Virus record (IMG/VR): IMGVR_UViG_3300028805_000039
Coordinates: 127,852-191,851 of that record
DNA: 64,000 nucleotides
Origin: a virus
Taxonomy: Duplodnaviria > Heunggongvirae > Uroviricota > Caudoviricetes
Reading direction: 5' to 3' (one strand)
Below are positions 1-26,400 of the stretch, one piece after another; the first letter of the stretch is position 1, and each line of letters opens with the position of its first letter. The notes under the pieces were generated by a model. That model had not been told where the DNA came from. It was given only the letters and a program-made list of their open reading frames with translations, and searched no databases. Position numbers and translations under genes: made by a program.

Positions 1-28
1 TGACAAATCCGGTTTTATAGTGTATAAT
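1..28 (+). promoter_or_regulatory. sigma70-type promoter; -35 truncated at the window edge, -10 TATAAT
   Basis: tgacaaatccggttttatagtgTATAAT matches the repeated early promoter seen at 259-287. Confidence 0.5.
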
Positions 29-78
29 CCTAAGTGTAAAGGGGTTAAGGAAAGCCCCAATGGGAAGGAGAAAAAACA

Positions 79-249
79 ATGTTCTTTGAAGTTATTGAAA
101 TCACTGAAACCGCATGGGGCGATGATGATATTATCCGCGGCCGCTTTGATACTCTGGCCGAAGCTGAAACCTTTATCGCTGAAACCTATGGCGAAGATGT
201 GCCAGACGTTTATGTGCAGGATTCCACTGGAGAAGTGGTCTGGGGCTAA
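79..249 (+). CDS. small acidic hypothetical protein (56 aa), not in the ORF track
   Basis: ATG 11 nt after an AAGGAG RBS, then an open frame (MFFEVIEITETAWGDDD...) to TAA; lies between two promoters. Confidence 0.45.
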   Translation: MFFEVIEITETAWGDDDIIRGRFDTLAEAETFIAETYGEDVPDVYVQDSTGEVVWG

Positions 250-258
250 AAAAAGTCC

Positions 259-287
259 TTGACAAATCTGGATTTATAGTGTATAAT
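259..287 (+). promoter_or_regulatory. early promoter TTGACA-17-TATAAT
   Basis: ttgaca at 259-264, 17-bp spacer, tataat at 282-287. Confidence 0.7.
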
Positions 288-325
288 CCTAAGTGTAAAG
301 AAGAGATACGAAAGGAAGTAAAAAA

Positions 326-544
326 ATGAAAAAGTTTGTTTATCAGGTTGGCGGTTATGAATTTGTTGGCTTTGAGGCTTTCGGCGACGCATGGAAGCAG
401 GCCAGAGCTAAGGCCACCGAACTTCACGCAGGTGTGTATCGCCTGGTGATTAAGGGCGAAACCGTCAAACAGGAAGTGCTGGTAAACGGCGGCGTGTTCC
501 TGTCCGTGAACCGCGTACAGCCTGAGCAGGTGCTCATCTTCTGA
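326..544 (+). CDS. hypothetical protein (72 aa)
   Basis: ORF track; RBS gaaaggaag upstream; followed by a terminator. Confidence 0.6.
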   Translation: MKKFVYQVGGYEFVGFEAFGDAWKQARAKATELHAGVYRLVIKGETVKQEVLVNGGVFLSVNRVQPEQVLIF

Positions 545-572
545 GGGACTTGAATAAAGTCCCATTTTTTTT
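543..572 (+). terminator. rho-independent terminator
   Basis: gggacttgaataaagtccc hairpin followed by a T8 run. Confidence 0.75.
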
Positions 573-907
573 GGCTATTTATGCATTGTATACTCATTCA
601 TTTCCAATGAAACTTTATTCATTTCGGCGCGCCGCTCCTGGCCGACGCGGCGCGTTTTCAGTATAACACACGCTGGGCAAAAAATCAATAGGCAAAATGC
701 ACAAAATTTTAACCTCGGCTGTTTCCCGAAAATTCCTTTGTGCAAAATGACGAATCGCTCAAAAATTGAAAAAAACTCTTGCAATCTGCGTTGTAGTATG
801 GTATTATAACAGTGTCAGGAGGGGTTGACTTGTCCCCCTCGAAACCGGCCCGGGCGATTTCCGGGGATGCCGACATAAGGGCAATAAAAAAAATGGAGGT
901 ACTAACT

Positions 908-1024
908 ATGTACGCTATCTGCACCACCCGCAATGGGTTTATCACCCGCCGCTACTACGGGGTTATTAACCCCTGGATGCTTTGCCGCCACTACGGCAAG
1001 GTCATCCTGACCAACGCCCTCTAA
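908..1024 (+). CDS. small hypothetical protein (38 aa; MYAICTTRNG...)
   Basis: ATG after a ggagg RBS, downstream of a promoter at about 775-800; it is the C-terminal part of track ORF 812..1024. Confidence 0.35.
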   Translation: MYAICTTRNGFITRRYYGVINPWMLCRHYGKVILTNAL

Positions 1025-1072
1025 GGTGGCGGGCTCCCTTGAAATGATATACAGGGAGCAAAAAAGTTCTTG

Positions 1073-1105
1073 ACAAACCACTACAAATCTGATATAATCC
1101 ATAGT
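1073..1105 (+). promoter_or_regulatory. early promoter (ttgacaaaccactacaaatctgatataat)
   Basis: consensus -35 and -10; drives the GC-rich non-coding transcript downstream. Confidence 0.6.
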
Positions 1106-2453: not shown

Positions 2454-2578
2454 TCATATGCCCGGGCGGCAATATATACAAAGCCGCCCGCTCTAATTTG
2501 TATAATATGCTGACTTGACAAATATAAAAAAATTTGGTAAAATATATATACAAAAGATGAAGAAAGGAATTGATGAAA

Positions 2579-3013
2579 ATGACGATTTGGTTTGATATGG
2601 ATGGTACTCTGGCTGACCTTTATGGTGTTGAAAATTGGCTCCCCATGGTTCGAGCAAGCGACCCTACTCCCTATATAATTGCCCGTCCCCTTGTAAATCT
2701 GTCAGCTCTTGCGCGTATCCTCAATCGGCTTCGCCGCGAGGGCTACGAAATCGGCGTAATTAGCTGGACTTCTAAGACTGGCACTCCTGATTATAACGCC
2801 GCTGTGACTGCCGCCAAGTATGCATGGCTGTCTAAGCACCTGCCATCTGTGGATTTTGATGAAATCCATGTTGTCCCCTACGGCACTCCCAAGCAGGTCT
2901 TTGCCCACTCTGACGATGATATTTTGTTCGATGATGAAGCAAAAAACCGTGAAAATTGGACTGGACTGGCTCTGGATGTTACCGATATTATCGGTGCTTT
3001 GAAAGCCCTTTAA
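2579..3013 (+). CDS. HAD-superfamily hydrolase, 5'(3')-deoxyribonucleotidase-like
   Basis: N-terminal FDMDGTLAD (HAD motif I, DxDGT) plus a conserved K and a DD in motif-like positions; start refined to the ATG of MTIWFDMDG. Confidence 0.6.
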   Translation: MTIWFDMDGTLADLYGVENWLPMVRASDPTPYIIARPLVNLSALARILNRLRREGYEIGVISWTSKTGTPDYNAAVTAAKYAWLSKHLPSVDFDEIHVVPYGTPKQVFAHSDDDILFDDEAKNRENWTGLALDVTDIIGALKAL

Positions 3014-3108
3014 ATAGGGCTGAAAAGCCCGGGCATTTTTGTGCATTTTGACTAATTGACAAATCCCAAGAGTAAGAGTATAATAGAGGACAGAAAGGGG
3101 ATAGAGCA

Positions 3109-3489
3109 ATGAATAAAGAAATGCAGATTTTGAATTACATGTGGAAACTCGGTCTTTCTCGTGAAGAAGCAGAACAGCTTTATAAAGATGAAGAAGAAGA
3201 TAATCTTCCTGAATTGACTGCTGAACAAAAGAAAGTCGAAAAGGAAATGCGGCAAGCTGACCGCAAGAAAGAAACTGTCCCGCGCAAGCGTGAACGTGAA
3301 CCCGATGGGGCAAAACTTTTATTGCTTTCTATCTTGTATCACAGTATAGATGATTATTTTGAAGATACTTTACATCACGATGGATTGAATTTGACTGTTA
3401 TAAATCCTGAAAGAGAATTTGAATTCATTTTTGAGAATGTTAAATATAGAATAACACTTTCAAAACCAAGAAAGGAAAAAGAAAAATGA
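3109..3489 (+). CDS. hypothetical protein; paralog of the 19798..20217 product
   Basis: shares LTxEQKKV...RKxxxKKxT..KRERxP with the ORF at 19798. Confidence 0.55.
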   Translation: MNKEMQILNYMWKLGLSREEAEQLYKDEEEDNLPELTAEQKKVEKEMRQADRKKETVPRKREREPDGAKLLLLSILYHSIDDYFEDTLHHDGLNLTVINPEREFEFIFENVKYRITLSKPRKEKEK

Positions 3490-3752
3490 AAGTTGTTGAA
3501 GTAAGTAAAAAAGTCCGAGAAGTACCACTTTCTTCTCTAAAATTAGGAGATACATTCATTTTTGATTCGAGAATTGGTATGGTTGCTTCTCGTAATGGGC
3601 ATGATTTTCCATTGGATTTAGTTTTGGGTCGGGAATTCTGTTTGCCCTCCGAAGTAAGGCAATGGATGCCACATGATCAGTCCGCTATGCTCTCTCCTTC
3701 TACAATGGTAATCCCTGTCGATTGTGAATTACAGTATCGGCTTAAATACTAA
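3486..3752 (+). CDS. hypothetical protein (88 aa)
   Basis: ORF track; start codon overlaps the upstream stop (ATGA). Confidence 0.45.
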   Translation: MKVVEVSKKVREVPLSSLKLGDTFIFDSRIGMVASRNGHDFPLDLVLGREFCLPSEVRQWMPHDQSAMLSPSTMVIPVDCELQYRLKY

Positions 3753-3885
3753 GCCGATACATTATTTAATAAATAAAAAAAGTTAACATAATAAAGTTTT
3801 CATTTTATTATTGACAAAGCCATTTTCTTATGTTATAATTTAAATGTTCCAAAAGGAAATGAATTTTTGAAAGGAGTTTTTGAAA

Positions 3886-3960
3886 TGGATATTTGGCTGT
3901 GGGGAATCGCGGGTGGAGTTGTTTTTATTCTTCTCTATATGTGGTTGGGCGATAAGTAAG
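3886..3960 (+). CDS. small hydrophobic peptide (24 aa)
   Basis: aaaggag RBS then ATG; MDIWLWGIAGGVVFILLYMWLGDK. Confidence 0.3.
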
Positions 3961-4296
3961 CCCAGCCTAACTGCCCGGGCGATTTGTTAAGAAATTATCA
4001 AATGATTTTTTAAAATACCCCATTGACATTTTCTAAATCATTTGCTATAATATAATTGTTCCAAGGGAAAGCGAAGAGAAGCAAGAAGCCCACAGAAGCC
4101 GGCGAGATGGGTGATGCAGTCGCCATACCACTACTCTATGGAGCCAAGGGGGATTCTCTTGAATCGCGAGTCAAGCGGAGAGAGGGAAGAATGTTCCCGC
4201 CGATAAAAAGAAACCCCCTTGTTTTTCAAATGAAATTCAAAATACCCTCTTGACAGAATAAGTCAAGTATGGTATAATGAATATAGTCAAGAGAGC

Positions 4297-4372
4297 AGAG
4301 CCACCGAATCTGGTTGAAATAACCCAGTAGTTAGAGAGACTTTGAGATTGACCGAATCTGGTTGAAATAACC
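4297..4372 (+). repeat. tandem direct repeat of two units (ccgaatctggttgaaataacccagtagttagaga), each holding a small hairpin
   Basis: two near-identical copies downstream of the promoter at 4251-4290. Confidence 0.6.
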
Positions 4373-4453
4373 CAGTAGTTAGAGAATAAAAAATCAATCA
4401 AATGCTCTCTTGACAAGCCCCAAAAAGTATGCTATAATGTAAATGTAAATAAG

Positions 4454-4530
4454 GAACGATAGAAGTTAAGTGGAAAGACAGTTGAAGTGTGCGAAGCACA
4501 TAGAAGCAGTGGGCGGTTCAAGTCCCCCTC
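4454..4530 (+). ncRNA. tRNA-like element (acceptor ggaacga/tcgttcc, T-loop ggttcaagtcc; no canonical anticodon arm, no CCA)
   Basis: perfect 7-bp acceptor complementarity and a T-arm, but a GTGC-gaa-GCAC hairpin replaces the anticodon arm. Confidence 0.3.
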
Positions 4531-4726
4531 GTTCCAGTCCAACAGGAATGATTCTTCTGCCTGAAAATGTCAAAAAAGAGAAGCGAGCCCTACGTTGAAA
4601 AAGTGGGTGACTTGTGTGTGGAATACGTAACACTCGTTCAGTTGTGGGCTGAAAACAACGGAGTGCCGAGCTGACGGCCTGCCTGACATAGAGCCTTGAT
4701 GACAAGAGGCATCAGCAATTAAATAT

Positions 4727-4813
4727 GCGGGTATGGTGGAATAGGCAGACACCACAGACTTAAAATCTGTTGGCCGCAAGGCCGTGCCGGTTCAAGTCCG
4801 GCTACCCGCACCA
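4727..4813 (+). tRNA. tRNA-Leu(TAA), class II
   Basis: acceptor gcgggta/tacccgc; anticodon stem acaga/tctgt with loop cttaaaa; long variable arm ggccgcaaggcc; T-loop ttcaagt; CCA encoded. Confidence 0.8.
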
Positions 4814-4959
4814 ATAACATCCTCTCTTCTTTCTTTCTTTCTCTTTTTGTGCGGTTCCTACCCTATGGGTAGGAATTGCGCCCGGGCAAAGAAATTGTTA
4901 AATAAATAACTTTTGAAAAAGGTATTGACTTTTCGTTAAAAAAGCGTATAATAATAATT

Positions 4960-5070
4960 GTCAAGAGGACGAGCGATAATCCGCCAGCCGTAGGGCAATA
5001 GCCAACAAGCGATACAGCGTGAGAAATCAACCGACAAAATTTTCAAAGAAATTTGAAAATCCTCTTGACA
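4960..5070 (+). ncRNA. promoter-driven small RNA unit; 5' end (gtcaagagg) pairs with its 3' end (cctcttgac), which is also the -35 of the next promoter
   Basis: aattgtcaagagg ... tttcaaagaaatttgaaa ... cctcttgacaa; no ORF. Confidence 0.4.
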
Positions 5071-5249
5071 AGACCACAAATCTGTGGTACAATAAAGATG
5101 TTGATAGGGAAGAGCCGAGCAAGGACGCAATTAGGACGGTGCGCGCGTGAAAAGCTACTGCCTATGGCTCAATAAAAAAAATAAAAATATTTCCTAAACC
5201 CTATTGACAAATCCACAGATTTGTGGTATAATAAATATAGTTGAAAGGG

Positions 5250-5830
5250 AGATGGAGAAGGGCGAGGTCACGCCGCCATCATAAAAAAATCCCAATGTGA
5301 GCGCTTTGCGGGAAAACCCTTTTGACATAAATGTAAGTGTAAGGATGATAAAGACCTGTGTACACCCCAACACAAGTTGGGCCGAGGCACAAAAACTACT
5401 GGCACGAGTGTACATTAAGTGCGTAGCCGAGAGTGGTTAGGGGCTACACTAATAATTATGCCATCTACCCATCTGCGTTGGGTAGTGAGGGGGACGCAGA
5501 CCCCAAAAAGTGAGCAACTACTTTAATGAGAGTCGCTGGACACCTCGCCCATTGAGGAGGGAAGTGCTGGTAGGTTCCCACCATAACACCAGACGCCAGA
5601 ACGTAAGGGCATACGGAATGGCAACAATTGTGGGATATTTATTTGTAGGTACTGAGAAAAACCTTCCGCAGTTTTAGACTATTATAAGTTCTGCGTAAAT
5701 AAAAACTTGCATGTAATTTTTATAAAATGGGTAAAGGCGTTGAGCGTGTATGTCTACCCCATTAAAAACGCTACAAAGGGTTTTACGGCAGGAGACCTAT
5801 ATAGGGGTGAGAAACCTATTCCCCTAATTT
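5250..5830 (+). ncRNA. about 0.55-kb GC-rich non-coding transcript region between the promoter (5204-5240) and the tRNA-Lys
   Basis: no ORFs; many hairpins; ends at the tRNA 5' end. Confidence 0.25.
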
Positions 5831-5834
5831 ATAA

Positions 5835-5909
5835 GCGCGTGTAACTCAGTGGTAGAGTAATCGCCTTTTAAGCGATAAGTCGCGGGTTCAAGCCCCGCCA
5901 TGCGCACCA
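5835..5909 (+). tRNA. tRNA-Lys(TTT)
   Basis: acceptor gcgcgtg/catgcgc (one G.U); anticodon stem atcgc/gcgat with loop cttttaa; T-arm gcgggttcaagccccgc; CCA. Confidence 0.8.
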
Positions 5910-6093
5910 ATACTTTTCCTTTCTCTCTTTTCTTTCTCTTTTGGTAATTCCTACTTTTATAGGTAGGAATTACGCCCGGGCGCAAAAATAATTTTTAAAA
6001 AAGTATTGACTTTTCACAAAAAAAGAGTATAATAATAAGTGTCAAGAGGAAAAATATAATCTAAAAAAATATTATAATAAAAGGTGATAAAAA

Positions 6094-6378
6094 ATGAATA
6101 TTATTGGTGGAATTTGGCTTATGACGACAGTTTTGGCTTTCTCTTTATTTGTTTCTGTATATTTTACAGCAAGAGAGAAATTCAAAAATAGACATCCAAC
6201 AGCAAAAATAGAAAAAAGTCTACTCGGAGAAAAAATCTATGGATATGTAATGGGTTTTGTTATTATAACTATACCAATTTTTCATTTTCTTACTTTATTC
6301 ATTTTAGCTACTCAGTATGATGATATTGTAGAAAGCACGATTTCCAAAATAGAAAATAAAATTATTTCAGAGGAATAA
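6094..6378 (+). CDS. membrane protein (94 aa, 2-3 TM segments)
   Basis: ORF track; hydrophobic segments; followed by the terminator at 6381-6410. Confidence 0.55.
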   Translation: MNIIGGIWLMTTVLAFSLFVSVYFTAREKFKNRHPTAKIEKSLLGEKIYGYVMGFVIITIPIFHFLTLFILATQYDDIVESTISKIENKIISEE

Positions 6379-6380
6379 GG

Positions 6381-6410
6381 ACTATTTTATTAGTCCTTAT
6401 TCTTTTTTAT
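6381..6410 (+). terminator. rho-independent terminator
   Basis: ggactattttattagtcc followed by a T-rich run. Confidence 0.7.
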
Positions 6411-6412
6411 TT

Positions 6413-6470
6413 GAAAATTTTAAAAAAATATTATATAATTATTATAGAAAATTAAAGAAAAGGAATTGAT
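6413..6470 (+). promoter_or_regulatory. late-type AT-rich promoter (TTGAAA-17-TATAAT) located inside the early module
   Basis: tatttgaaaattttaaaaaaatattatataat, identical to the module-2 promoters. Confidence 0.55.
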
Positions 6471-6475
6471 AAAAA

Positions 6476-6727
6476 ATGATTATGACTATTATTGACCAGA
6501 AGAAAGAATTTAATGCTCACATTGATAATCTTGTGGCAAAGTGCCCGGGCGACAAGACTAAGGCTGAACTTTTTCACGAGTTTATGGCTGATGGAATGTT
6601 CAATTGCTCTGTTGATGAGAACTATTTTTATGAATTTACTCTTGCTTTTGAAGAGTTTCTGTATTTTACTTATCGTATGGATGCCGCAAATTTTAAATAT
6701 TTTGATTTGAATAGATTTTACTTCTAA
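6476..6727 (+). CDS. hypothetical protein (83 aa)
   Basis: ORF track. Confidence 0.5.
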   Translation: MIMTIIDQKKEFNAHIDNLVAKCPGDKTKAELFHEFMADGMFNCSVDENYFYEFTLAFEEFLYFTYRMDAANFKYFDLNRFYF

Positions 6728-6784
6728 AAAGACTTGACAGATACCTTTCAGTATGCTATACTATAATTGTCAGGAGGGATATTG

Positions 6785-7045
6785 ATGGAATTAAAAGAAA
6801 TGATTGAAAAACTTACTAATGCGCTTGACAAAGAAAGCGATTATTGGTGTAATTTTGCGGTAGCGAATACCACCAATCCGGATAAAATGATGTATGGTGC
6901 GGCTGTTGGCCGAGGAGCAACATATAGTGAGGTTGCAATGCTGCTTAAATTTATCCTTAATAATGATACCGATAAATTTGAAGATTTTCTGACTTGTTAT
7001 AATGATATTAAAGAAAAATATCAGAAAATAAATGAAGGGAGATAA
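6785..7045 (+). CDS. hypothetical protein
   Basis: ORF track 6767..7045, start refined to MELKEM behind a gaggga RBS. Confidence 0.5.
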   Translation: MELKEMIEKLTNALDKESDYWCNFAVANTTNPDKMMYGAAVGRGATYSEVAMLLKFILNNDTDKFEDFLTCYNDIKEKYQKINEGR

Positions 7046-7049
7046 TAAA

Positions 7050-7379: not shown

Positions 7380-7387
7380 TTTACCTC

Positions 7388-7478: not shown

Positions 7479-7511
7479 CCAAGAGGAAAACAAAAAAAGG
7501 AGAATAAAATA

Positions 7512-8061: not shown

Positions 8062-8073
8062 GGAGGAATAAAA

Positions 8074-8355: not shown

Positions 8356-8360
8356 TCTTG

Positions 8361-18650: not shown

Positions 18651-18691
18651 TCCCTACGGCTTCGGGGGTGAGCCAATCACCCCCATACTAT

Positions 18692-18922: not shown

Positions 18923-19453
18923 ATGAAACAGAAAGAAATGAAGTGCATTCATCCGCGCAAGATGGTAAAAATTATGGAACGCTTTATTTATCTCGCAGGA
19001 AATGAGAAATGCGAAATTCATCGTGCGGATTCTTTTGGCACCTATGCCGCTTTTGAGGATTTTATTATTGATTATGACCCCAAAAAACTTCCTTATTGCC
19101 ATGATTACTTTACCAAAAATTTTCATAAGCGCAGTTCTATCTCTAAAGGATTCGCGGGTGTTACTATTTCTTTATTACACGAACTGGGGCATCGTAAAAC
19201 ATACGAACAATTTATCATAACTTACCCTAACTGGGATAGAATATTAGAAAGTTTGAAACTTCGTAAAAAATATCATTTCTTTGATGACCCTACTGAGCGT
19301 GATATAGAACAGGCGAATGAAGAATATTTTACTTGGCCTGAAGAAGCTATGGCTACTGAATGGGCTATAGAATGGTTGAATGACCCGGCTAATCGTAAAA
19401 TTGCAAAAAAATTTGAAAAAGAATTTTTTGCTTGTTTTGCCGCCGCTAAATAG
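18923..19453 (+). CDS. HExxH zinc-metallopeptidase-like protein; terminates at TAG
   Basis: ISLLHELGHRK motif; stop codon TAG at 19451-19453 sits inside the gccgct...agcggc terminator hairpin. Confidence 0.5.
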   Translation: MKQKEMKCIHPRKMVKIMERFIYLAGNEKCEIHRADSFGTYAAFEDFIIDYDPKKLPYCHDYFTKNFHKRSSISKGFAGVTISLLHELGHRKTYEQFIITYPNWDRILESLKLRKKYHFFDDPTERDIEQANEEYFTWPEEAMATEWAIEWLNDPANRKIAKKFEKEFFACFAAAK

Positions 19454-19549
19454 AGCGGCAAAACGCCCGGGCGCGCAAATTTACTATTGACAAGTAAAGT
19501 AATTAGTGTTATAATAATTGTGAAACCAAAAGGAAAGGAATTAAATAAA

Positions 19550-19780
19550 ATGAAGGAAAAAATTTTGGCTTGCCTTAATCGTTGGCCTGGAGCGCGCAAG
19601 CGTGAAGTTGCTACAGAAATTCATTGTCCTGTGAATGGAGCATTTCTTCATAACTTTAGCGAATTGGAAGATATTGGCTTTATTCACCGTGTCACAGTTA
19701 ATGACCCGGCTAATATGGAATTTTATGATAAATGGTACTTGACAGATGTTGGGTATCGTGCTATAATGAATGTAGATTAA
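19550..19780 (+). CDS. hypothetical protein
   Basis: start refined inside track ORF 19487..19780 (MKEKILACLN). Confidence 0.5.
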   Translation: MKEKILACLNRWPGARKREVATEIHCPVNGAFLHNFSELEDIGFIHRVTVNDPANMEFYDKWYLTDVGYRAIMNVD

Positions 19781-19797
19781 GGAAAGGAGTGTAGCAC

Positions 19798-20217
19798 ATG
19801 GCCAAGCCTGCTTTGAATGAAAAGACTATCGCGGATTACATGAAGCGTAATAAGTGTACCCGTGAAGATGCAATCGACCTTATCAAATACGATATTGCGG
19901 TTGAAGATGGCGAAGAAACCGAGTATGACCTGACCGAAGAACAGAAAAAGGTTGTACAGGATATGAACCGCAAGATTGACCACAAAAAGCCCACCACTAA
20001 GGTCAAGAGAGAACGCAAGCCGAATGAACTGAAAGAAGCCCTTGTCGCCGCTCTTGCAGATTATTTGGAAAATGTCTGTGAAATTGATATTGCTGAAAGC
20101 GGTCTTATTTACTGCGGAGATGTGGAAATTACCAATAAAAATCGTATGATTCACTTCACCTGCAAAGACAAGGAATTTGACCTGCAGCTCATTGAAAAGC
20201 GGCCCAAAAAGTCCTAA
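19798..20217 (+). CDS. hypothetical protein; paralog of 3109..3489
   Basis: shared LTEEQKKV..KRERKP block. Confidence 0.55.
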   Translation: MAKPALNEKTIADYMKRNKCTREDAIDLIKYDIAVEDGEETEYDLTEEQKKVVQDMNRKIDHKKPTTKVKRERKPNELKEALVAALADYLENVCEIDIAESGLIYCGDVEITNKNRMIHFTCKDKEFDLQLIEKRPKKS

Positions 20218-20730
20218 ACAAGCGAAACCCCGAACTTTTCGGGGCAATTCGCCCGGGCGGATTGTTAAATAAATAACTTATAAATAGATATTGACAACTA
20301 CCATCAATCCTGTTATAATATAATTGTTCCAAGGGAAAGCAAGAAAGTGACTGAGCCTGTTAAAGTCGCATCTGCGGGTGGGTGCGCAACACCTCTGAGT
20401 AGACCTTCAGCCAGTCGGTCAACCTTGTGGAAGCTTCTTACCAAGGAACATTCTCTGGGTAGGATTAGCTACCCTACTCATACAAATTTAATATAGGGAA
20501 GACAAAAGAAAGGAAATAGTAAAGCTATGGTTTTACTACTGCGGCTACCGCATCTTTAACACTTTTGCGGTAATATAAATTTTAAGACACTACCCGCCTA
20601 TTGGTACGGCGGGTGAGTGCCCGGGCGCGCATTTTTTTTTAGAAAAAACTATTGACAAACAACAAAAAGTCTGCTATAATAACAACTGTAAGGAACCAAG
20701 AGATAGATTAAAAAGAAAGGGGATAAAAAA

Positions 20731-20949
20731 ATGTTTCTTTGCGATGTACCCCGCGGGACTATTATATGTTTTGATGAGATACCCAATTATTATATCAAAG
20801 TCAAAAGATTAGATGGAGTATCTGGTGTTGTCAATTTAGAAACTGGTATATTCTATGAAGCAAAAGACTTGCGCGAGCAGGGTGTTGATCCTGATCATTT
20901 CTCTTATGTAGCGCCAAATTTTTATTCTTTTACAACAAATTGGCAGTAA
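20731..20949 (+). CDS. hypothetical protein (72 aa)
   Basis: ORF track. Confidence 0.5.
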   Translation: MFLCDVPRGTIICFDEIPNYYIKVKRLDGVSGVVNLETGIFYEAKDLREQGVDPDHFSYVAPNFYSFTTNWQ

Positions 20950-21295
20950 GTAAGCTGCCCGGGCGGATTGTTAAATAAATAACTTTTGAAAAAGGTATTG
21001 ACTTTTAGAAGAAAAAGAGTATAATAATAATTGTTAAGGGGAGGGGCTCCCAAAAAAACAAAATCGCCTGTGGGATTTAACTGGCGACCTGATAAAAAAA
21101 ATTCTTGAAACAAAGAAAAACCCCTTGACAAATTCCACTTAATGTGGTATAATGAATACAGTTAAGAGGGCGGTGGAAACCACGATACGCACCGTTTGTG
21201 CTGATGAAAGAAACAAGCCCGAAAAAAATTTCAAAGAAATTTGAAATCCCTCTTGACAAACACCACAAGCTGTGGTATAATAAGTATGTAAATAA

Positions 21296-21364
21296 GGGCG
21301 AGCAGGTTGAGTAGCCCCTCTATGGGGCAAAGTTAAATGGGGGGTTCGATTCCCCCCACGCCCC
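21296..21364 (+). tRNA. irregular tRNA-like gene with a CUA anticodon loop; candidate amber-suppressor tRNA
   Basis: own promoter (tataataagtatgtaa); acceptor gggcgag/cacgccc (6 of 7 bp); T-arm ggggg-ttcgatt-ccccc; anticodon arm gccc-cUCUAug-gggc with CTA at 21320-21322; D-arm truncated; no encoded CCA. Confidence 0.35.
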
Positions 21365-21520
21365 CAAAAAAAATAAAAAGGGTCTTGACAAAAGCCTGAA
21401 CCTATGATATAATAAGTATGTAAGCAAGAGGGAGTTGAAAATCCCCTGCTGATAAATGCCTTGCCGCTACTAAAAGGCATAAGAATCTGGTAGCACAAAT
21501 TTTAGAAAGAGGTAGATACT

Positions 21521-21898
21521 ATGGCTAATTCTGTTGAGAAGAAGGTTACTAAGCGTGACCGCTTTAACGAACTGCTCGGCATCCCCGCCGTGGCTGAGAA
21601 TGAGGGTCTGGTTGAGTTTATCAATCACGAGATTGAGCTGCTCGACAAGAAGAATACCGCGGAGCGGAAGCCCACTGCAAAGCAGGTTGCCAATGAGGGT
21701 TATAAGGAAGCCATTGTTGGCTGGATGGAGCCTGACCGCCTGTATCTGGCGGCTGAGATTGCCAAGGGCTGTCCCGCTATCGTGGAGAACGGTGTCACCG
21801 CTGGCACTGTGACCGCCCTGCTGACCCAGCTTTACAAGGCTGGCAAGATTGTCCGCACTGAGGACAAGCGGAAGAATTATTACTCCCTCGCGGAGTAA
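21521..21898 (+). CDS. family-X protein (paralog 3)
   Basis: C-terminus KAGKIVRTEDKRKNYYSLAE; conserved leader. Confidence 0.6.
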   Translation: MANSVEKKVTKRDRFNELLGIPAVAENEGLVEFINHEIELLDKKNTAERKPTAKQVANEGYKEAIVGWMEPDRLYLAAEIAKGCPAIVENGVTAGTVTALLTQLYKAGKIVRTEDKRKNYYSLAE

Positions 21899-21941
21899 TA
21901 ATTCCCCCATGGGGGATGGGTAAATCCCCCGCCCCTAAAAT

Positions 21942-22018
21942 GGCCCCTTCTACTAATTGGATAGGTAATCAGGCTTTCAACCTGAAAATGGTGAGTTCAA
22001 ACCTCCCAGGGGTCACCA
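21942..22018 (+). tRNA. tRNA-Glu(TTC)
   Basis: acceptor ggcccct/aggggtc; anticodon stem tcagg/cctga with loop ctttcaa; T-loop ttcaaac; CCA. Confidence 0.65.
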
Positions 22019-22200
22019 ATACTTTTCTTATATCTCCTTTCTTTCTCTCCTTTCTTTTTTCCCTTTGTGGGGCTCTACCACTTTAATGTGGTAGAGTTCC
22101 TGCCCGGGCAATTTGTTAAAACCTTAACAAAATAAACTACTTGACATAATTCCAATAGCGTGATATAATTTTTATAGTAAAAGATAAGGAGTGTTAAATA

Positions 22201-22407
22201 ATGGCGGATAACCCTGTATCATGGTTTTTTCTTACTGTAATTGGTATTTATTTTATTTGTCGTTTTTTCAAAAAGGTAATTGATGAAAGCGAACGCCTAA
22301 AAGCGGAAAGAGAAAAAGCCTGTCAAGAAATTTTCTTTGAAAATTCTCTTGACAAAACAAATACTATGGCGTATAATAGATACATAAACAGGAGGGAAAA
22401 CAAATGA
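22201..22407 (+). CDS. small membrane protein (68 aa)
   Basis: ORF track; N-terminal TM helix. Confidence 0.45.
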   Translation: MADNPVSWFFLTVIGIYFICRFFKKVIDESERLKAEREKACQEIFFENSLDKTNTMAYNRYINRRENK

Positions 22408-23108
22408 ATTACATGATGATTGATACTGAGACTACTAATAGTCTTGATGACCCTTTTGCCTATGATGTAGGTTTTGAAGTTTTTGACCGTGACGGCAATA
22501 CTATTGAAATTGCGTCTTTAACTAATAAGGATTTGTTCCTTGATAAAAATTTTATGTCCACTGCTTACTATGCTGAAAAAATCCCTAACTATTGGAAAGA
22601 GATTTGGGCAAAAGAGCGTGAACTTTTAACTTGGCGGGAAATCAAGTGGAGAGTGTTCGATGCTTGTAAGCGAAACGATTGTCAGATTGTAGCGGCCCAC
22701 AATGCTATGTTTGACAATCGGGCATTAAACTTAACCCAGCGTTATATTACTACCAGTCAGTACCGTTATTTTCTGCCGTATGGTGTGACTTGGTGGGACA
22801 CTTTGAAAATGGCTCGTGAAGTTCTCGGCAAAGATGAAACTTATGCACGATTTTGTGAATACTTTGGATATACTACCGTAAGGGGCAAGCCTCGCTTTAC
22901 CGCTGAGATTGTATATAAATACATTAGTGGGGATATAGATTTTGAGGAACGGCATACTGGCCTTGAAGATGTAAAGATAGAAAAAGATATTTTTCTTTAT
23001 TGTCTTGACCGCGCCCCCGACATAGATGGGCGGCTTTGGAAACCTAAGCCGGAGCCGCCCCGTAAAATGGAACCTTGGGAAATCGAATTACAAGAATTAC
23101 TTGCTTAA
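22404..23108 (+). CDS. DEDD-family 3'-5' exonuclease (second paralog)
   Basis: MMIDTETT, AAHNAMFD, HTGLEDVKIE motifs. Confidence 0.6.
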   Translation: MNYMMIDTETTNSLDDPFAYDVGFEVFDRDGNTIEIASLTNKDLFLDKNFMSTAYYAEKIPNYWKEIWAKERELLTWREIKWRVFDACKRNDCQIVAAHNAMFDNRALNLTQRYITTSQYRYFLPYGVTWWDTLKMAREVLGKDETYARFCEYFGYTTVRGKPRFTAEIVYKYISGDIDFEERHTGLEDVKIEKDIFLYCLDRAPDIDGRLWKPKPEPPRKMEPWEIELQELLA

Positions 23109-23120
23109 AGGAGAATAAAA

Positions 23121-23269
23121 AATGAAATATTCTGTAACTCTTGGTTATGAAGTTGAAGTGGAAGCCAATACCCGTGAAGAGGCCATGGACGCCGCTGTCT
23201 TGGCTTTTAGTGAAGACACGCACCCCGATGTGTATATCGCATTCATCGAGCAGCTGGAAAATGAATAAT
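23121..23269 (+). CDS. small hypothetical protein (49 aa)
   Basis: aaggaga RBS then ATG. Confidence 0.35.
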
Positions 23270-23389
23270 TTTCCAGTCGCCCGGGCGTTTTATTTCAAAA
23301 ATTTTAAATAATTTTGGCACTTGACAAATAACTCCTCTTGTGCTATACTATAATTGTTCCAAGAGATAAGAAGAAAGGAAGTAAATAAA

Positions 23390-23560
23390 ATGACACGTAA
23401 AGAAATTATTAGTTATCTGTGCGGGCATCCTGGCTCTCCTCTTGATGATTCTCCAGTTGTAAGGGAACTGGAGAAAGATGAGATGATTGAGTGTCGTAAT
23501 GGAAAATTTTATCTTACTCCTATAGGTTGGAGAATTGCTATGTGGAAATGGGAGGTATAA
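23390..23560 (+). CDS. hypothetical protein
   Basis: inside track ORF 23354..23560; RBS aaaggaag. Confidence 0.5.
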   Translation: MTRKEIISYLCGHPGSPLDDSPVVRELEKDEMIECRNGKFYLTPIGWRIAMWKWEV

Positions 23561-23565
23561 AACAA

Positions 23566-23741
23566 TGGATAAAAATAATTATCTTTTTGTTTGCGTTTTG
23601 AAGATTCTCAAGCATCGTATTGAAGTTGCTCATTCTGCGCAGACAAAGAGCGCCTTGATTTTTGCTCATAACCTTTTGGTTTATGCGCTTCGTAATGACA
23701 CCGCAGCTATTGATGCGGCAATGAAGAAAGAAGGTCTGTAA
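23566..23741 (+). CDS. hypothetical protein
   Basis: inside track ORF 23535..23741. Confidence 0.45.
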
Positions 23742-23742
23742 A

Positions 23743-24024
23743 ATGTTTATTCGTGATTGGGATGGAATGAAATTTGAATCTGAAAATGAAGCATTTGGAA
23801 ATGCTTGTACTGATATGCTTACCGATGGAGCGATTGGTGATTATCTTAAACCTTGGGTAAGCTATGATACTCTTCTTGATTGGGCGATGAAGCAAGACGG
23901 CTTTTTTGATTATTTCGCAGATGAATTTTATAAAGCCCAGCAAGATTATTTCAATGATTTCTATTTTGAAATGGAGGATGATGAAGATGAAAACAGTGAA
24001 TGTGAGGGCGAGAGTAACTTATGA
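23743..24024 (+). CDS. acidic hypothetical protein
   Basis: ORF track. Confidence 0.5.
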   Translation: MFIRDWDGMKFESENEAFGNACTDMLTDGAIGDYLKPWVSYDTLLDWAMKQDGFFDYFADEFYKAQQDYFNDFYFEMEDDEDENSECEGESNL

Positions 24025-24214
24025 TTATCAGGTAGAAATTCCTGATGATGAAGAAGAGTGTGCTATGACTGACATTGCGAGTTATTGCGATGGAAGTGAT
24101 CCAGTATATTCTGCTATGTGTAAGTTAATGGAAAATACAGGTATCCAATGGGAAGGTGAGCTTCTTTCTATTGTTGATGAGAATACTGATGAGGTATTAT
24201 GGTGCGGCGAGTAA
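23987..24214 (+). CDS. hypothetical protein
   Basis: start refined inside track ORF 23906..24214 (MKTVNVRARV). Confidence 0.45.
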   Translation: MKTVNVRARVTYDYQVEIPDDEEECAMTDIASYCDGSDPVYSAMCKLMENTGIQWEGELLSIVDENTDEVLWCGE

Positions 24215-24308
24215 GTCGCACCTAACTGCCCGGGCGCAAAATAGGTATTGACAAGTAAAATAAAATATGTTATAATCATTACAGAAAACAGAAAAGGAGA
24301 AATAAAAA

Positions 24309-24496
24309 TGGAAAAATTAACTTTGGCAAGAATGTGTGAAATTTATGATAATTGTAAAATAAATGATTGCGATAATTGTCCATTAGCTTTAGCTATGGAC
24401 ATTGATGGGAATAGTGCTTGTTCACTTATTGGGCTTCTTCAGGAGGCTATGGAAAATTATAATGATTTTATAATAAATATCTTGACAAATAGTTAA
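24309..24496 (+). CDS. Cys-rich small protein
   Basis: inside track ORF 24248..24496. Confidence 0.45.
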
Positions 24497-24542
24497 ATTT
24501 GTGATATACTAATTCCAGAAACAAAGAAAAGGAGAATAAAAA

Positions 24543-24740
24543 ATGAAAATGTACGACTTCCTTTTTGAATTTACCGAAGATAGCGATAACGAGGGTGAGC
24601 AGATTCTTGTCGAAGCATCAAGTCTTGATAGTGCTTGGGCTTGTCTGGTATTTGACAATGGCTTTGAGTTTAAGGAACTGCGTTTCATCGAGCAGATGGA
24701 GACTTGGGAAGGCGAACTTCTTGGTCTTGATACTTATTAA
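24543..24740 (+). CDS. acidic hypothetical protein
   Basis: ORF track. Confidence 0.5.
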   Translation: MKMYDFLFEFTEDSDNEGEQILVEASSLDSAWACLVFDNGFEFKELRFIEQMETWEGELLGLDTY

Positions 24741-24753
24741 GGAGAATAAAAAA

Positions 24754-24957
24754 ATGGAACCAACACCATCTTGTTCTTATTGTGGTTGTGATTTAACTCT
24801 TTTTGACCACTATGATTGTTATGACACTGAGGACAAAGTGCTTTGTTTTGCTAATGGGTATTGCCCAAAGTGTCGGCGCGAATATCGTTGGACTGATGTT
24901 TATACATTAACTGATTTTGAAGATTTGGAGGAAGTTAATAAAAATGAAAATTGTTGA
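24754..24957 (+). CDS. zinc-ribbon protein (CSYCGC...CPKC)
   Basis: start refined inside track ORF 24565..24957. Confidence 0.45.
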   Translation: MEPTPSCSYCGCDLTLFDHYDCYDTEDKVLCFANGYCPKCRREYRWTDVYTLTDFEDLEEVNKNENC

Positions 24958-25068
24958 ACGGTTTGAAGATGCTAATAAAGTTTGGCGGCTTAATTACGAT
25001 TTCTTTCAATTGCCTTGGTGGGTGTGCGTAGAAGCATACATTAGAAATTTGATAATGGGGGTTAAATA

Positions 25069-25311
25069 ATGAAAGAATACTGGATTGATTTTTCTGGCTA
25101 TGTAAAAGTAGAAGCAGAAAATGCTGATGAAGCAGAACGCAAATTTTGGGATGCCGTTAATACTAAATGTCCTTTCCTTGCTAAAGATGGATTCAATGAT
25201 GATGTGTGGGATTTGGACGCCACAGAGGAAGTGACTAATTTTCCCAGTGCTATTAACAATCCCAATGCTCCTAACTTACAGGATATAGAGGACTTTTGGA
25301 ATGACAAATAA
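25069..25311 (+). CDS. acidic hypothetical protein (80 aa)
   Basis: ORF track. Confidence 0.5.
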   Translation: MKEYWIDFSGYVKVEAENADEAERKFWDAVNTKCPFLAKDGFNDDVWDLDATEEVTNFPSAINNPNAPNLQDIEDFWNDK

Positions 25312-25329
25312 GGGGTGTATAATAATACA

Positions 25330-26400
25330 CCCCTATGAATAATGCCCGGGCAAATCGGCCCGGAGACGCTAGCGTAGGGCCGAACTTCCATTATATCATA
25401 TTTCAGGAAAATTGTCAAGTAAAATATTGCACAAAAATTGGTTTACATAATATCCCGAAACTGTGCACTTTGCTACGCTAAATCGCTAACACTTTAGCAC
25501 GCTAAATCGCTAAATCGCTACTGCGTTAAAGTCCGGCCGCTATGTCTTGACAAAAATATCACAATGTCTGGAAAAAATCTCCATATGCGGCTCGATTTTA
25601 AACAAAAGTGGGCCTAATTTTACCGGTCGGTGGCTTTCGCTAGTCACATATGCGATTGATTTTAAAACAAAAGTGGCTTTAAAACCAGTATATAAAAAAT
25701 TTTAACTAGTTTTTTATCAAAAAAAACTAGTTTTTTTGCGTTTTTAAGTAGTTTTAACTCGTTTTTACTTAGTTTTGCGGCGTTTTTGGCTAGTTTTATC
25801 TCGAAAAAATACCACTTTTTTTGCCTATTTTTGGCGAAAAAAGCCGGTCGGAAACTTGACTTTTAAAAAAAAATTTGATATAATATCAAAAAAAACCATT
25901 TTTTTTTAGGCCGCACGCCCGGATAATAGCATCATTTTATCCTATTCCAGAAGCCAAAATTAAAGGTCAAATTGCCTCACATCAAAAAAAATTAACACGA
26001 ATTCACGTTTCTACTTTTAAAAGTAGTGCGGAGGACAAGAATTATGCCTGGCATACGAGTTCCAAGAGGAACAGAGAAAGGAAAAGTAGGCATATGCGGC
26101 CTTATATTTTATTTAATAATTGACAAATATAAAATAATATGATATAATATAAAAAAAACATACTTTAAATGAGGAGCCACGGATTTAATTCTATTTGCCT
26201 CGCACAAAAATTTTCATTCTCATTTTAACACCTTTATTTTTAACTTTCATAGATAAAACAAGACTATAACTGGCAATACGACTCCAGAGCAAACGAAAAA
26301 ATTTTTGAAGCCGGTCGGTTTAACTATGTATAAAAAGTATTAATTTGAATTTTTTAAAAAAATATTATATAATATATATAGAAAATAAATAAAGGAGAAT
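25330..26400. other. about 1.1-kb non-coding control region at the boundary between modules: short iterons, gccggtcgg x3, catatgcg x3, gattttaaacaaaagtgg x2, phased A/T tracts
   Basis: no ORFs; repeats listed; '(a)ctagtttt' tracts at a 10-11 bp period over 25690-25815; two promoter-like elements. Confidence 0.5.
25470..25540. repeat. cgctaaatcgcta iterons shared with 1680-1870
   Basis: ctacgctaaatcgctaacactttagcacgctaaatcgctaaatcgctact. Confidence 0.5.

Follow-up and report, generated by a model that had tools for sequence, protein, structure and literature searches.

Results

Layout of the locus

The DNA analyzed here, hereafter the window, comprises 64,000 nucleotides (nt) of the Caudoviricetes record IMGVR_UViG_3300028805_000039 (positions 127,852-191,851) and is a strand-coherent piece of a very large phage-like genome; an exact-protein look-up placed the same genes on a contig of 0.2-1 Mb. 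Positions 1-25,400 form what we call the early region, in which strong promoters head small open reading frames (ORFs), short operons, tRNA genes and units with no ORF, many of these promoters being part of a cassette that combines a gene-end hairpin, the 8-nt palindrome GCCCGGGC and the promoter itself. The remainder, the second module, carries tRNA arrays, a ROOL RNA (52506-53129) and a vault-like protein, with no recognizable virion genes; the whole window has 29 tRNA genes. With a probability of roughly 0.6, we interpret the early region as the hyperplastic early module of an uncultivated huge Clostridia phage, in which cassettes of the promoter-early stem-loop (PeSL) type double as recombination handles. 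The labels "early" and "late" used below derive from promoter type only.

G+C content is about 40% in 1-25,400, 26-36% over most of the rest and 40% again around the tRNA arrays. The promoter array is truncated by the start of the window, bases 1-28 (tgacaaatccggttttatagtgTATAAT, plus strand) being the 3' part of a promoter identical to that at 259. Stop-codon recoding brought no region-specific gain in ORF coverage, and the standard code was kept. Most early-region ORFs had no Pfam match and few or no homologues in relatives, and no T4-like gene was recognized in a Pfam screen of the 105 window ORFs.

The early region is an array of near-consensus promoters

Scanning for TTGACA-N16-18-TATAAT with at most one mismatch returned 50 plus-strand promoters in 1-25,400, 19 beyond that point and three on the minus strand, against an expectation of about 2.3 from Markov shuffles; 32 matches were perfect (0.05 expected), and the curated list holds 51 promoters. 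The counts and coordinates of a preliminary description of this DNA, made from the sequence alone, were thereby essentially confirmed. Aligned on the -10 hexamer, the promoters have TTGACA and TATAAT in common, with an A-tract ahead of -35 and a spacer of 17 nt, or of 16 nt in one sub-family; 38 of 50 (76%) have a TGn extended -10. Hexamers 17 +/- 1 bp apart, the Bacillota-style TGn and an A-rich region resembling an upstream-promoter (UP) element place them in the sigma70/sigmaA class. They are co-oriented with the genes and lie 20-36 nt upstream of starts led by Shine-Dalgarno sequences. Given this near-consensus strength, orientation and spacing, the natural reading would be that unmodified host RNA polymerase is used early in infection, in keeping with the host-polymerase hijacking suggested previously.

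The description of these elements as near-identical and "one per tiny gene" did not hold, as at least five promoter/cassette sub-families can be distinguished, 17 promoters are separated from the next promoter or tRNA by no plausible ORF, and several more stand in front of operons of 2-4 ORFs. The 17 ORF-less units mean that about a third of the promoter array serves putative small-RNA genes.

A gene-specific hairpin abuts an invariant palindrome

GCCCGGGC occurs 31 times in 1-25,400 (0.06 expected) and is absent from 25,401-64,000. It lies within 70 nt upstream of 28 of the 51 promoters, leaving 23 that stand alone, and three copies (848, 6543 and 25344) have no promoter. A full cassette reads, in order, hairpin, 0-7 nt, GCCCGGGC, 2-7 nt, an optional TTGTTAA-N4-TTAACAA box with an A-tract, TTGACA-17-TGnTATAAT and a sub-family leader. 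With up to three mismatches allowed, the early region has 15 copies of the box (GATTGTTAAATAAATAAC), where 0.47 would be expected for the window; at the same threshold there are only six copies of the downstream leader motif AATTGTTCCAAGAGGAAAG. The four-part cassette, complete in only about four instances, is thus the exception.

The hairpin upstream of GCCCGGGC is variable and specific to each gene, with a mean folding energy of -13.9 kcal/mol vs -5.6 for shuffles. Part of it consists of the final codons of the gene before it, and the stop codon falls within it in 15 of 19 cases. GCCCGGGC itself is a loop-less palindrome that cannot fold on itself; a place for it in the hairpin was rejected, since folds that include it showed opportunistic pairing with no constant partner. 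The previous picture of a terminator hairpin at every promoter therefore needs correction: just 28 of 51 promoters have GCCCGGGC upstream, and a T-run follows the hairpin in only two cassettes (8772 and 12718), GCCCGGGC standing in its place in all others. Since they lack the U-tract, the cassettes are not intrinsic terminators, and the "strong insulated units" of that picture are not borne out, whereas five late-type promoters do have hairpin-plus-T-run terminators.

These features raise the possibility that the cassettes are punctuation of expression and nothing more, with the hairpin and GCCCGGGC ending or trimming the upstream transcript (as an unusual terminator, attenuator, RNase processing site or 3'-end stabilizer), the promoter restarting transcription and recombination being incidental. 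The hairpin does sit tight against GCCCGGGC, with a gap of 0-5 nt in most of more than 300 cases, the enclosed stop codons are what end-of-gene signals would show, and the last unit of the module (25311-25351) consists of a hairpin and GCCCGGGC with no promoter. In early mRNAs of phage T7, RNase III cuts at intergenic hairpins. The missing U-tract speaks against this explanation, as canonical hairpin-plus-T-run terminators exist elsewhere in this genome, and so do the strand symmetry and placement of GCCCGGGC in relatives described next, together with its lack of a consistent RNA pairing partner. We consider it unlikely.

GCCCGGGC is retained across a large phage family

The pattern GCCCGGGC-N12-42-TTGACA-N17-TATAAT was found in at least 115 IMG/VR stretches, most of them on contigs of tens of kb to 200 kb and some on contigs encoding the 780-amino-acid (aa) vault-like protein at 71-78% identity. 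In 965 kb of relatives there are 549 copies of GCCCGGGC, compared with at most 46 of any other G+C-only 8-mer palindrome and at most 50 of any one-mismatch variant, and a near-consensus promoter lies within 75 nt to one side of 307 unique sites. Contigs carrying many cassettes include IMGVR_UViG_3300032007_000018, 3300028048_000053, 3300026549_000035 and JAGCPW010000095.1. Identity of the proteins that the relatives have in common with the window is only 35-65%, and homologues are lacking for most small ORFs; that the 8-mer stays exact over such divergence indicates, at the level of sequence comparison, selection on GCCCGGGC and not recent common descent.

The distance from GCCCGGGC to -35 varies from 10 to 46 nt, which argues against an activator site of fixed geometry. 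The constraint on its flanks is strand-symmetric (A is avoided at -1 and T at +1, each being present in only 14 of 546), and in eight cases one copy lies between two divergent cassette promoters, flanked in contig L069 by mirror-image boxes, so that no cassette transcript crosses the motif there. Contig L185 (JAZQHA010000176.1, Acutalibacteraceae-binned) carries 20 cassette copies in 8 kb in the order T-run terminator, GTTAA, about 9 nt, GCCCGGGC, about 20 nt, CTTAAC, promoter. Since GCCCGGGC follows each complete T-run terminator there by about 20 nt, it appears as a separate element between terminator and promoter, kept while the architecture around it changes. It also occurs in non-coding regions of relatives rich in TTTAGCG-type palindromes. 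Taken together, the variable spacing, symmetric flanks, sharing by divergent promoters, L185 layout and palindrome-rich settings favour recognition of GCCCGGGC as double-stranded DNA, probably by a symmetric or dimeric protein, over a role at the RNA level. Operator-binding regulators recognized by the Pfam screen of the window were limited to an AbrB/MazE-type protein, a PC4-like protein and zinc ribbons.

An origin of GCCCGGGC in host genomes was rejected, the bacterial matches being single-copy, chance-like and devoid of cassette architecture, and the ten in contig L177 lying in coding DNA of 67% G+C. Among GenBank phages, megablast with 9 kb of the window gave no match, and there was no sign of a close match or of a relative that is near-identical or cultured. 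Querying in distant mode with 115 nt of cassette returned a chance match only, an exact 27-mer of the cassette was absent from IMG/VR, an exonuclease-based locus search found nothing, and the literature on GCCCGGGC in phages or on comparable jumbo-phage cassettes yielded nothing relevant.

A 14-bp palindrome, TTTAGCACGCTAAA, is confined to two gene-free regions that flank the main array (1560-1900 and 25330-26330), where it occurs at 1716-1729, 1772-1785 and 25493-25506. Related TTTAGCG...TTAAAG repeats alternate with GCCCGGGC in two relatives (L143 and L038). By analogy, the cluster looks like parS-, KorB-operator- or origin-type sites.

Strain junctions coincide with cassettes

Exact-protein look-ups recovered three contigs (L150, L280 and L152) of a 99.9%-identical strain from one short-read metagenome assembly (ENA sample ERZ27256871). 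L150 corresponds to window positions 3016-14925 and leaves the window sequence inside the cassette at 14876; what follows is a small-RNA unit with 95% identity to 20957-21130 and a gene that the window does not have. In L280, a paralogue of the Zn-ribbon and AbrB-like genes, 82% identical to them, is joined via a cassette to window position 17893 onward; this contig overlaps L152 by 141 nt. L152 has the order 18950-20278 | 14875-17930 | 20251-33108, its two joints sharing only GCCCGGGCGGATTGTTAAATAAATAACT. Relative to the window, the variant strain thus has blocks 14,876-17,885 and 17,885-20,251 swapped, with extra DNA inserted. All four strain junctions fall in cassettes, which cover about 6% of the region. 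The identity shared at the junctions (GCCCGGGC plus box) amounts to 28-50 nt, within which the crossover point is not resolvable. Such a block swap is the outcome that excision and re-insertion of cassette-bounded circles would give.

One may ask whether these joints, and the cassettes themselves, are paralogous debris, that is, copies of one ancestral intergenic region, multiplied by tandem and segmental duplication, in which GCCCGGGC persists by descent or gene conversion and which the assembler mis-joined. The module does contain repeated super-modules, and the variant-strain contigs end at or near cassettes, as they would at branch points of an assembly graph. At 28-50 nt, however, the shared repeats fall far short of the final k of 141, and the variant strain carries DNA that the window lacks (the novel gene and the 82%-identical AbrB-like paralogue), both of which weigh against assembly error. 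Debris also fails to account for an exact 8-mer kept despite 35-65% protein identity and unalignable cassette flanks, with one-mismatch variants at least ten times rarer. We regard this explanation as very improbable.

The junctions could alternatively be the work of a site-specific system in which GCCCGGGC is the crossover core and the hairpin a structural part, moved by a dedicated phage recombinase or nuclease in the manner of integron attC sites. Each of the four junctions starts precisely at GCCCGGGC, the 8-mer keeps its exact sequence amid drifting surroundings, and the variable hairpin overlaps the gene end, as in attC; palindromes of 8 bp are, moreover, cut by type II enzymes such as SrfI. 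Homologous exchange within the 28-50 nt of identity explains the junctions equally, however, because the homology necessarily begins at GCCCGGGC when the hairpin to its left is gene-specific. The Pfam screen found no recombinase, integrase, transposase or nuclease domain in the 105 ORFs of the window, which is less than 25% of the genome, and the cassettes have neither the R''/L''-L'/R' architecture nor the GTTRRRY core of attC. A site-specific system of this kind seems to us highly unlikely.

A Rex-like box and the probable host

The box that follows GCCCGGGC resembles the clostridial Rex operator, the consensus of which is given as TTGTTAA-N4-TTAACAA (TTGTTAANNNNTTAACAA) in passages of PMC9600882 and PMC8457756 that cite Ravcheev 2012. 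The match is exact at 22113-22130 and in relatives. With up to three mismatches the box is found in 59% of window cassettes, 25% of relatives' cassettes and less than 1% of shuffles of the same segments. Window copies comprise one perfect match, one with a single mismatch and 14 with two or three, the right half-site being mostly degenerate, and the relatives' cassettes add four perfect and 12 one-mismatch copies. The box starts 2-7 nt after GCCCGGGC, with its centre 20-22 or 28-30 nt upstream of -35. It shares the identical 7-4-7 consensus with Rex operators of Clostridia and differs from them in lying off the promoter, in its half-sites and in belonging to a phage and not to a fermentation gene; by sequence it is a putative site. 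Candidate binders could be Rex, a factor of the CRP/FNR type or a phage protein of similar specificity, and the box may mainly be a UP-like element.

Extended -10 elements, strong AAGGAG-type Shine-Dalgarno sites, the Rex-type box and Clostridia-binned contigs together make a host of the Bacillota, class Clostridia, from gut or rumen the most likely. The multi-copy cassette contigs found in GTDB all belong to Clostridia bins (Acutalibacteraceae and a "Eubacterium sp." MAG from yak reticulum). The earlier argument against a Bacteroidota host, made from the promoter hexamers, is thus supported, with one caveat: the only contrary hint is that the vault-like protein is 40% identical to Mahaphage, whose clade has been predicted to have Bacteroidetes hosts (PMC7162821).

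The early region feature by feature

The promoters, cassettes and other array elements listed next lie on the plus strand, and downstream units are those predicted from promoter position; three entries in brackets after a cassette give, in order, its hairpin and the positions of GCCCGGGC and -35. At the left end, a stand-alone TTGACA-17-TATAAT promoter (259-287) heads ORF 326-544, and a leader element (819-855) has a hairpin (819-840) and GCCCGGGC (848-855) with no consensus promoter downstream. Two further stand-alone promoters precede about 450 nt of GC-rich non-coding DNA (1070-1098) and ORF 2001-2453 (1913-1941). Cassettes at 2418-2543 (2418-2449, 2460, 2515) and 3004-3084 (3004-3021, 3027, 3056) head the NT5C/HAD-like ORF 2573-3013 and ORFs 3109-3752, respectively, and a stand-alone promoter (3811-3839) heads a 30-aa ORF (3867-3959). 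The cassette at 3943-4051 (3943-3967, 3973, 4023), with a one-mismatch Rex-like box at 3984-4001, is followed by about 190 nt of non-coding DNA. Stand-alone promoters then precede a non-coding unit of about 125 nt with two 35-nt direct repeats (4250-4278) and a tRNA-like element with tRNA-Leu 4727-4813 (4410-4438). A boxed cassette at 4851-4952 (4851-4879, 4880, 4925), with TTGACT as its -35 and a 16-nt spacer, and a stand-alone promoter at 5065-5093, preceded by a TTTCAAA-N-TTTGAAA palindrome, each head about 105 nt of non-coding DNA; the stand-alone promoter at 5204-5232 heads a non-coding unit of about 85 nt, and a weaker one, TTGACA-16-GATGAT (5322-5349), is followed by about 480 nt of non-coding DNA and then tRNA-Lys 5835-5909.

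The cassette at 5944-6033 (5944-5973, 5974, 6006) heads ORF 6094-6378, after which the element at 6369-6451, a canonical T-run terminator (6369-6406) with a late-type promoter (6411-6451), leads into ORF 6476-6727. This ORF contains a copy of GCCCGGGC (6543-6550, no strand assigned) with no hairpin and no promoter. A stand-alone promoter (6734-6762) precedes ORFs 6785-7379, the cassette at 7361-7469 (7361-7391, 7392, 7441) precedes ORF 7512-7742, and the four-part cassette at 7721-7819 (7721-7750, 7751, 7791), with its box at 7762-7779 and the leader aattgttccaagaggaaag, precedes the Zn-ribbon and AbrB/MazE-like ORFs 7852-8355. Boxed cassettes at 8340-8436 (8340-8366, 8368, 8408) and 9130-9227 (9130-9157, 9158, 9199) head ORF 8479-8784 and ORFs 9260-9834, and between them the cassette at 8829-8911 (GCCCGGGC 8829, -35 8883), with a canonical terminator (8772-8797) farther upstream, heads ORF 8978-9115. 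A stand-alone promoter in the 3' end of ORF 9655-9834 (9820-9848) heads ORFs 9881-10321.

Further on, a boxed cassette at 10309-10402 (10309-10328, 10334, 10374) precedes ORFs 10432-10898, a short cassette at 10915-10965 (GCCCGGGC 10915, 14 nt, -35 10937) precedes ORF 10997-11197, and a stand-alone promoter (11184-11212) precedes ORFs 11245-11887. The boxed cassette at 11884-11974 (11884-11903, 11906, 11947; -35 TTGACT) heads a conserved small RNA of about 90 nt (11982-12065), and the stand-alone promoter at 12070-12098 an 86-nt conserved leader and ORF 12191-12595. About 100 nt of non-coding DNA follow the boxed cassette at 12778-12845 (GCCCGGGC 12778, -35 12818), which has a canonical terminator (12718-12743) upstream; the next stand-alone promoter (12952-12980), again preceded by the TTTCAAA-N-TTTGAAA palindrome, heads the PcfJ-like ORF 13016-14128. 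The boxed cassette at 14138-14233 (14138-14161, 14166, 14206) heads about 125 nt of structured non-coding DNA (z -2.9), and a stand-alone promoter (14370-14398) heads ORFs 14431-14863. The boxed cassette at 14849-14944 (14849-14873, 14876, 14916) is a strain junction, at which L150 diverges and L152 joins 20250|14904. Boxed cassettes at 15635-15740 (15635-15669, 15672, 15712) and 16254-16363 (16254-16290, 16292, 16336) head ORFs 15771-16278 and the DEDD-exonuclease-like ORF 16419-17129. The second terminator-plus-late-promoter element (17131-17205; T-run terminator 17131-17160, promoter 17165-17205) has no ORF before the next cassette, a short one at 17239-17296 (GCCCGGGC 17239, -35 17268) that heads ORF 17329-17871.

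The boxed cassette at 17859-17953 (17859-17881, 17885, 17926), before about 88 nt of non-coding DNA, is likewise a strain junction (L152 joins 17884|20291, and L280 joins the AbrB-like paralogue to 17893). Stand-alone promoters at 18047-18075 and 18139-18167 head a non-coding unit of about 58 nt and an 84-nt conserved leader with ORF 18258-18650 and tRNA-Lys 18692-18767. Next come the cassette at 18807-18893 (18807-18836, 18839, 18866) before ORF 18923-19453, the short cassette at 19434-19515 (19434-19464, 19465, 19487) before ORF 19550-19780 and, in the 3' end of the latter, a stand-alone promoter (19739-19767) before ORF 19798-20217. Both L152 joints involve the boxed cassette at 20228-20319 (20228-20244, 20251, 20291), also a strain junction, which heads about 290 nt of non-coding DNA. 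The cassette at 20589-20680 (20589-20618, 20619, 20652) heads ORF 20731-20949. The boxed cassette at 20957-21025 (GCCCGGGC 20957, -35 TTGACT 20998), of which a 95%-identical copy lies at the L150 junction, and the stand-alone promoter at 21125-21153 each head about 94 nt of non-coding DNA; stand-alone promoters at 21253-21281 and 21385-21413 head a tRNA-like minihelix RNA (21296-21365, z -3.9) and a 101-nt conserved leader with ORF 21521-21898 and tRNA-Glu 21942-22018. The cassette at 22069-22169 (22069-22100, 22102, 22141), with its perfect TTGTTAAaaccTTAACAA at 22113-22130, heads ORF 22201-22407, inside which a stand-alone promoter (22349-22377) precedes the exonuclease-like ORF 22404-23108. 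The cassette at 23253-23349 (23253-23277, 23279, 23321) heads a four-ORF operon (23390-24214), the short cassette at 24201-24276 (24201-24222, 24228, 24248) ORF 24308-24496 and the stand-alone promoter at 24482-24510 another four-ORF operon (24543-25311). The module ends at 25311-25351 with a last hairpin (25311-25334) and GCCCGGGC (25344).

The palindrome (A)TTTCAAA-N3-4-TTTGAAA(T) abuts the -35 of several stand-alone promoters (5040-5064, 12925-12951, 21226-21252 and 22320-22348). A nucleoside 2-deoxyribosyltransferase and a radical-SAM protein are encoded at 15189-15656 and 62828-63697, hinting at phage modification of nucleotides or DNA bases.

Non-coding units and small RNAs

Rfam at E<=1 on 1-26,500 gave no match for the non-coding units beyond tRNAs and a T-arm fragment. 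The view that all units are structured RNAs was discarded, since the folding energy of most is unremarkable (z 0 to -1.7), the exceptions being those at 21289 (-3.9), 14241 (-2.9) and 4960 (-2.8). The units are nonetheless not junk. The small RNA at 11982-12065 recurs in five other phage contigs (L036, L052, L277, L278 and L279) with 89-95% conservation. Its transcribed part is nearly invariant across contigs, whereas the promoter spacer and upstream sequence differ and the surrounding DNA is unalignable. The central stem exists in three fully compensatory versions (CAGG/CCTG, CAAG/CTTG and CGGG/CCCG). Purines dominate the 5' end, which is Shine-Dalgarno-like, the 3' part is CU-rich, and the RNA belongs to no Rfam family. 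This unit is the sole clear nucleotide similarity between the 14-kb L036 and the window besides weak (about 73%) cassette-cassette matches, and the short piece L052 matches the window only in this unit and that at 20327.

ORF-less units of 58-480 nt each form tandem promoter arrays at 4023-5834, 11947-12190, 12818-12950, 14206-14366, 17926-18257, 20291-20618 and 20998-21520. A terminator is often missing ahead of the following -35, and a 130-aa paralogue, a tRNA or both close several of the arrays. The majority of units are confined to this genome, and small RNAs, decoys or anti-defence RNAs are possibilities for them. The unit at 4286-4405 contains two identical 35-nt direct repeats (ACCGAATCTGGTTGAAATAACCCAGTAGTTAGAGA) 13 nt apart, with their own promoter, and is reminiscent, by analogy, of repeat-RNA antitoxins or solitary CRISPR-repeat-like RNAs. 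Two tRNA-like minihelices (4455-4545 and 21296-21365), for which ARAGORN made no tRNA call, have an acceptor-like stem and a GGTTCGATTCC-type T-arm, one of them ending in CCA; that at 21296-21365 matches the 3' end of tmRNA (E 0.005), with a fold z of -3.9.

Each of the four tRNA genes of the early module is followed by a CU-rich tract of about 35-50 nt with CTCCTTTCT (4814-4850, 5910-5943, 18768-18806 and 22019-22068), and hairpin and GCCCGGGC come next. These tracts resemble the anti-Shine-Dalgarno 3' end of 16S rRNA and are complementary to the purine-rich cassette leaders. Three paralogous, unusually G+C-rich genes (12191, 18258 and 21521; 125-134 aa) have weak C-terminal winged-helix similarity and share an 85-100-nt 5' leader, 82-86% identical (12106-12190, 18175-18257 and 21421-21520), possibly a cis-regulatory RNA. 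Larger super-modules consisting of a cassette, 1-3 RNA units, the 130-aa paralogue, a tRNA and a CU tract are repeated.

A second, late-type promoter class

The second promoter class is a 41-mer, TTGAAAATTTTAAAAAAATATTATATAATATWTATRKAARA, with 16 copies at up to three mismatches in the window (0 expected) and about 22 under looser criteria, in line with the figure of about 20 given before; the two copies previously placed inside the early module are those at 6411 and 17165. The other 14 strict copies, all on the plus strand, start at 26345, 28816, 33274, 36303, 41398, 44518, 45211, 45797, 46247, 47934, 50023, 54495, 54826 and 60824, and looser plus-strand copies at 30715, 38575, 41290, 41942, 52164 and 58110. 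Strong hairpin-plus-T-run terminators precede only five late-type promoters (6411, 17165, 33274, 36303 and 41942). Conservation of the class extends over 41 nt, including an A-rich spacer and the first transcribed bases (ATATATAGAAAA); this exceeds what sigma contacts need, suggesting an additional factor. The class is common to closer relatives (L001-L011, L022 and L029), where it has TGn. The ROOL RNA (292 bits) lies amid tRNA arrays; a perfect TTGACA-17-TATAAT that has the A-rich spacer typical of this class is located about 340 nt upstream of it.

The 780-aa protein (30884-33226) has Major Vault Protein shoulder and repeat domains (E 7e-19) and is kept at 50-81% in 33 IMG/VR contigs, its gene neighbourhood not being conserved: these 33 loci were not syntenic with the window and lacked GCCCGGGC. 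Its only GenBank relatives, at 40% identity, are in the 735-kb Mahaphage genomes LR756501/LR756503.

Discussion

The PeSLs of T4-type phages, present in about 50 copies per genome, combine a strong sigma70-like promoter, A/T-rich upstream DNA and a stem-loop (Arbiol et al. 2010, PMC2839356). They occupy hyperplastic regions before ORFans, and recombination between them produces indels between close relatives, and mini-circles (PMC2839356; Comeau et al. 2014, PMC4122927). The 28 cassettes described here likewise unite a near-consensus promoter and a stem-loop in one intergenic unit, with the stem-loop upstream, a listed PeSL arrangement (PMC2839356); they crowd a hyperplastic ORFan region (31 of 31 GCCCGGGC copies in 1-25,400), and four of four breakpoints in the one metagenome assembly fall within them. 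They differ in that the phage is not a T4-type myovirus and its host is probably a Gram-positive member of the Clostridia. The stem-loop here is gene-specific and lies upstream of the promoter over the preceding stop codon, whereas that of PeSLs is usually between or over -35/-10 and often polyG/polyC. The invariant GCCCGGGC, the Rex-operator-like box and, in a third of cases, the non-coding RNA cargo are further differences, the palindrome and box having no PeSL counterpart. Terminator activity and mini-circles belong to PeSLs, and the present comparison draws on sequence and strain comparison only. The PeSL principle is thus known, and what is new concerns the lineage and probable host, the nature and position of the stem-loop, the invariant palindrome, the Rex-like box and the RNA cargo. 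Three features had escaped the preliminary description: the cassettes are where strains recombine, they are conserved in a large family of phages, and a third of them would express small RNAs.

Host-takeover or pre-early modules of SPO1-like and T5-like phages gather dense, strong host-sigma promoters and small early genes at one end of a large virulent genome, and the early region resembles them in having such promoters before many small early genes. To our knowledge, those modules have ordinary terminators, no palindrome between terminator and promoter, no described role in recombination and no arrays of RNA genes. The KorB OB sites of IncP plasmids are global palindromic operators at variable distance from many promoters. 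Similarly, one short palindrome here lies upstream of many promoters at non-fixed distances and is sometimes shared by divergent ones, a layout that, by analogy, implies a single dimeric regulator for the whole module; the sequence of GCCCGGGC is unrelated, however, and no ParB/KorB-like protein was identified here. With integron attC sites the cassettes share a recombination-associated element at gene 3' ends whose variable stem abuts a short conserved core, often over the stop codon. They lack IntI, R/L boxes and the GTTRRRY core, carry their own promoters and have a self-complementary core outside the stem. Identity with attC was rejected on the missing R/L architecture, the lack of an integrase domain in the window and the promoter in each cassette.

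In the PeSL-type model that we prefer, the host sigmaA holoenzyme would recognize the early promoters straight after infection; a third of these would drive non-coding RNAs of about 60-500 nt, the others ORFan genes and short operons. The strain comparison shows the 28-50 nt of identity shared by cassettes to be the site at which gene blocks are exchanged, and the mechanism would be either homologous recombination or excision and re-insertion of cassette-bounded circles, as proposed for T4-type PeSLs. GCCCGGGC would not belong to a terminator; as double-stranded DNA it would be bound by a dimeric protein acting as global regulator or as boundary factor of the early promoters, and the adjacent box may let host Rex, or a protein of the same specificity, modulate a subset of promoters.

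Several points weigh against this model. The strain comparison comes from three contigs of a single short-read assembly, and repeats are where assemblers err; in a coarser comparison of IMG/VR pairs of at least 95% identity, only three of 18 homology breakpoints lay near GCCCGGGC (1.1 expected). Promoter use, timing and hairpin function are deduced from sequence. Candidate binders of GCCCGGGC in the window are limited to the AbrB/MazE-type protein (8074-8355) and the three weakly winged-helix-turn-helix-like paralogues. Finally, most window copies of the box consist of the left half-site only, and the box lies at about -55 to -65 and not over the core promoter, from where Rex usually represses.

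A bolder extension is that GCCCGGGC and the hairpin form the site of a dedicated phage protein conserved throughout a large clade of huge Clostridia phages. This might be a site-specific recombinase or nuclease that moves cassettes of a promoter plus a gene or small RNA, as in an integron whose cassettes have their own promoters, or a global switch of about 30 early promoters acting in series with Rex and gated by host NADH/NAD+. We offer it tentatively and consider it doubtful.

If the PeSL-type model is correct, recombination handles of this kind are not a peculiarity of T4-like coliphages and would have arisen convergently in huge phages that infect anaerobic Gram-positive bacteria of the gut; this would help to account for the way in which huge genomes gather and reshuffle hundreds of ORFans. 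The module further offers a possible link between host redox state, through Rex, and phage early transcription, and arrays of small RNAs with promoters of their own, among them at least one whose conservation includes compensatory base changes. The early promoters, as compact and very strong parts, could serve the engineering of Clostridia. The cassette is also a searchable signature that delimits early modules, groups uncultivated phages and aids host prediction; in the present lineage, whose sole relatives in GenBank are assigned to Bacteroidetes, it points to Clostridia.

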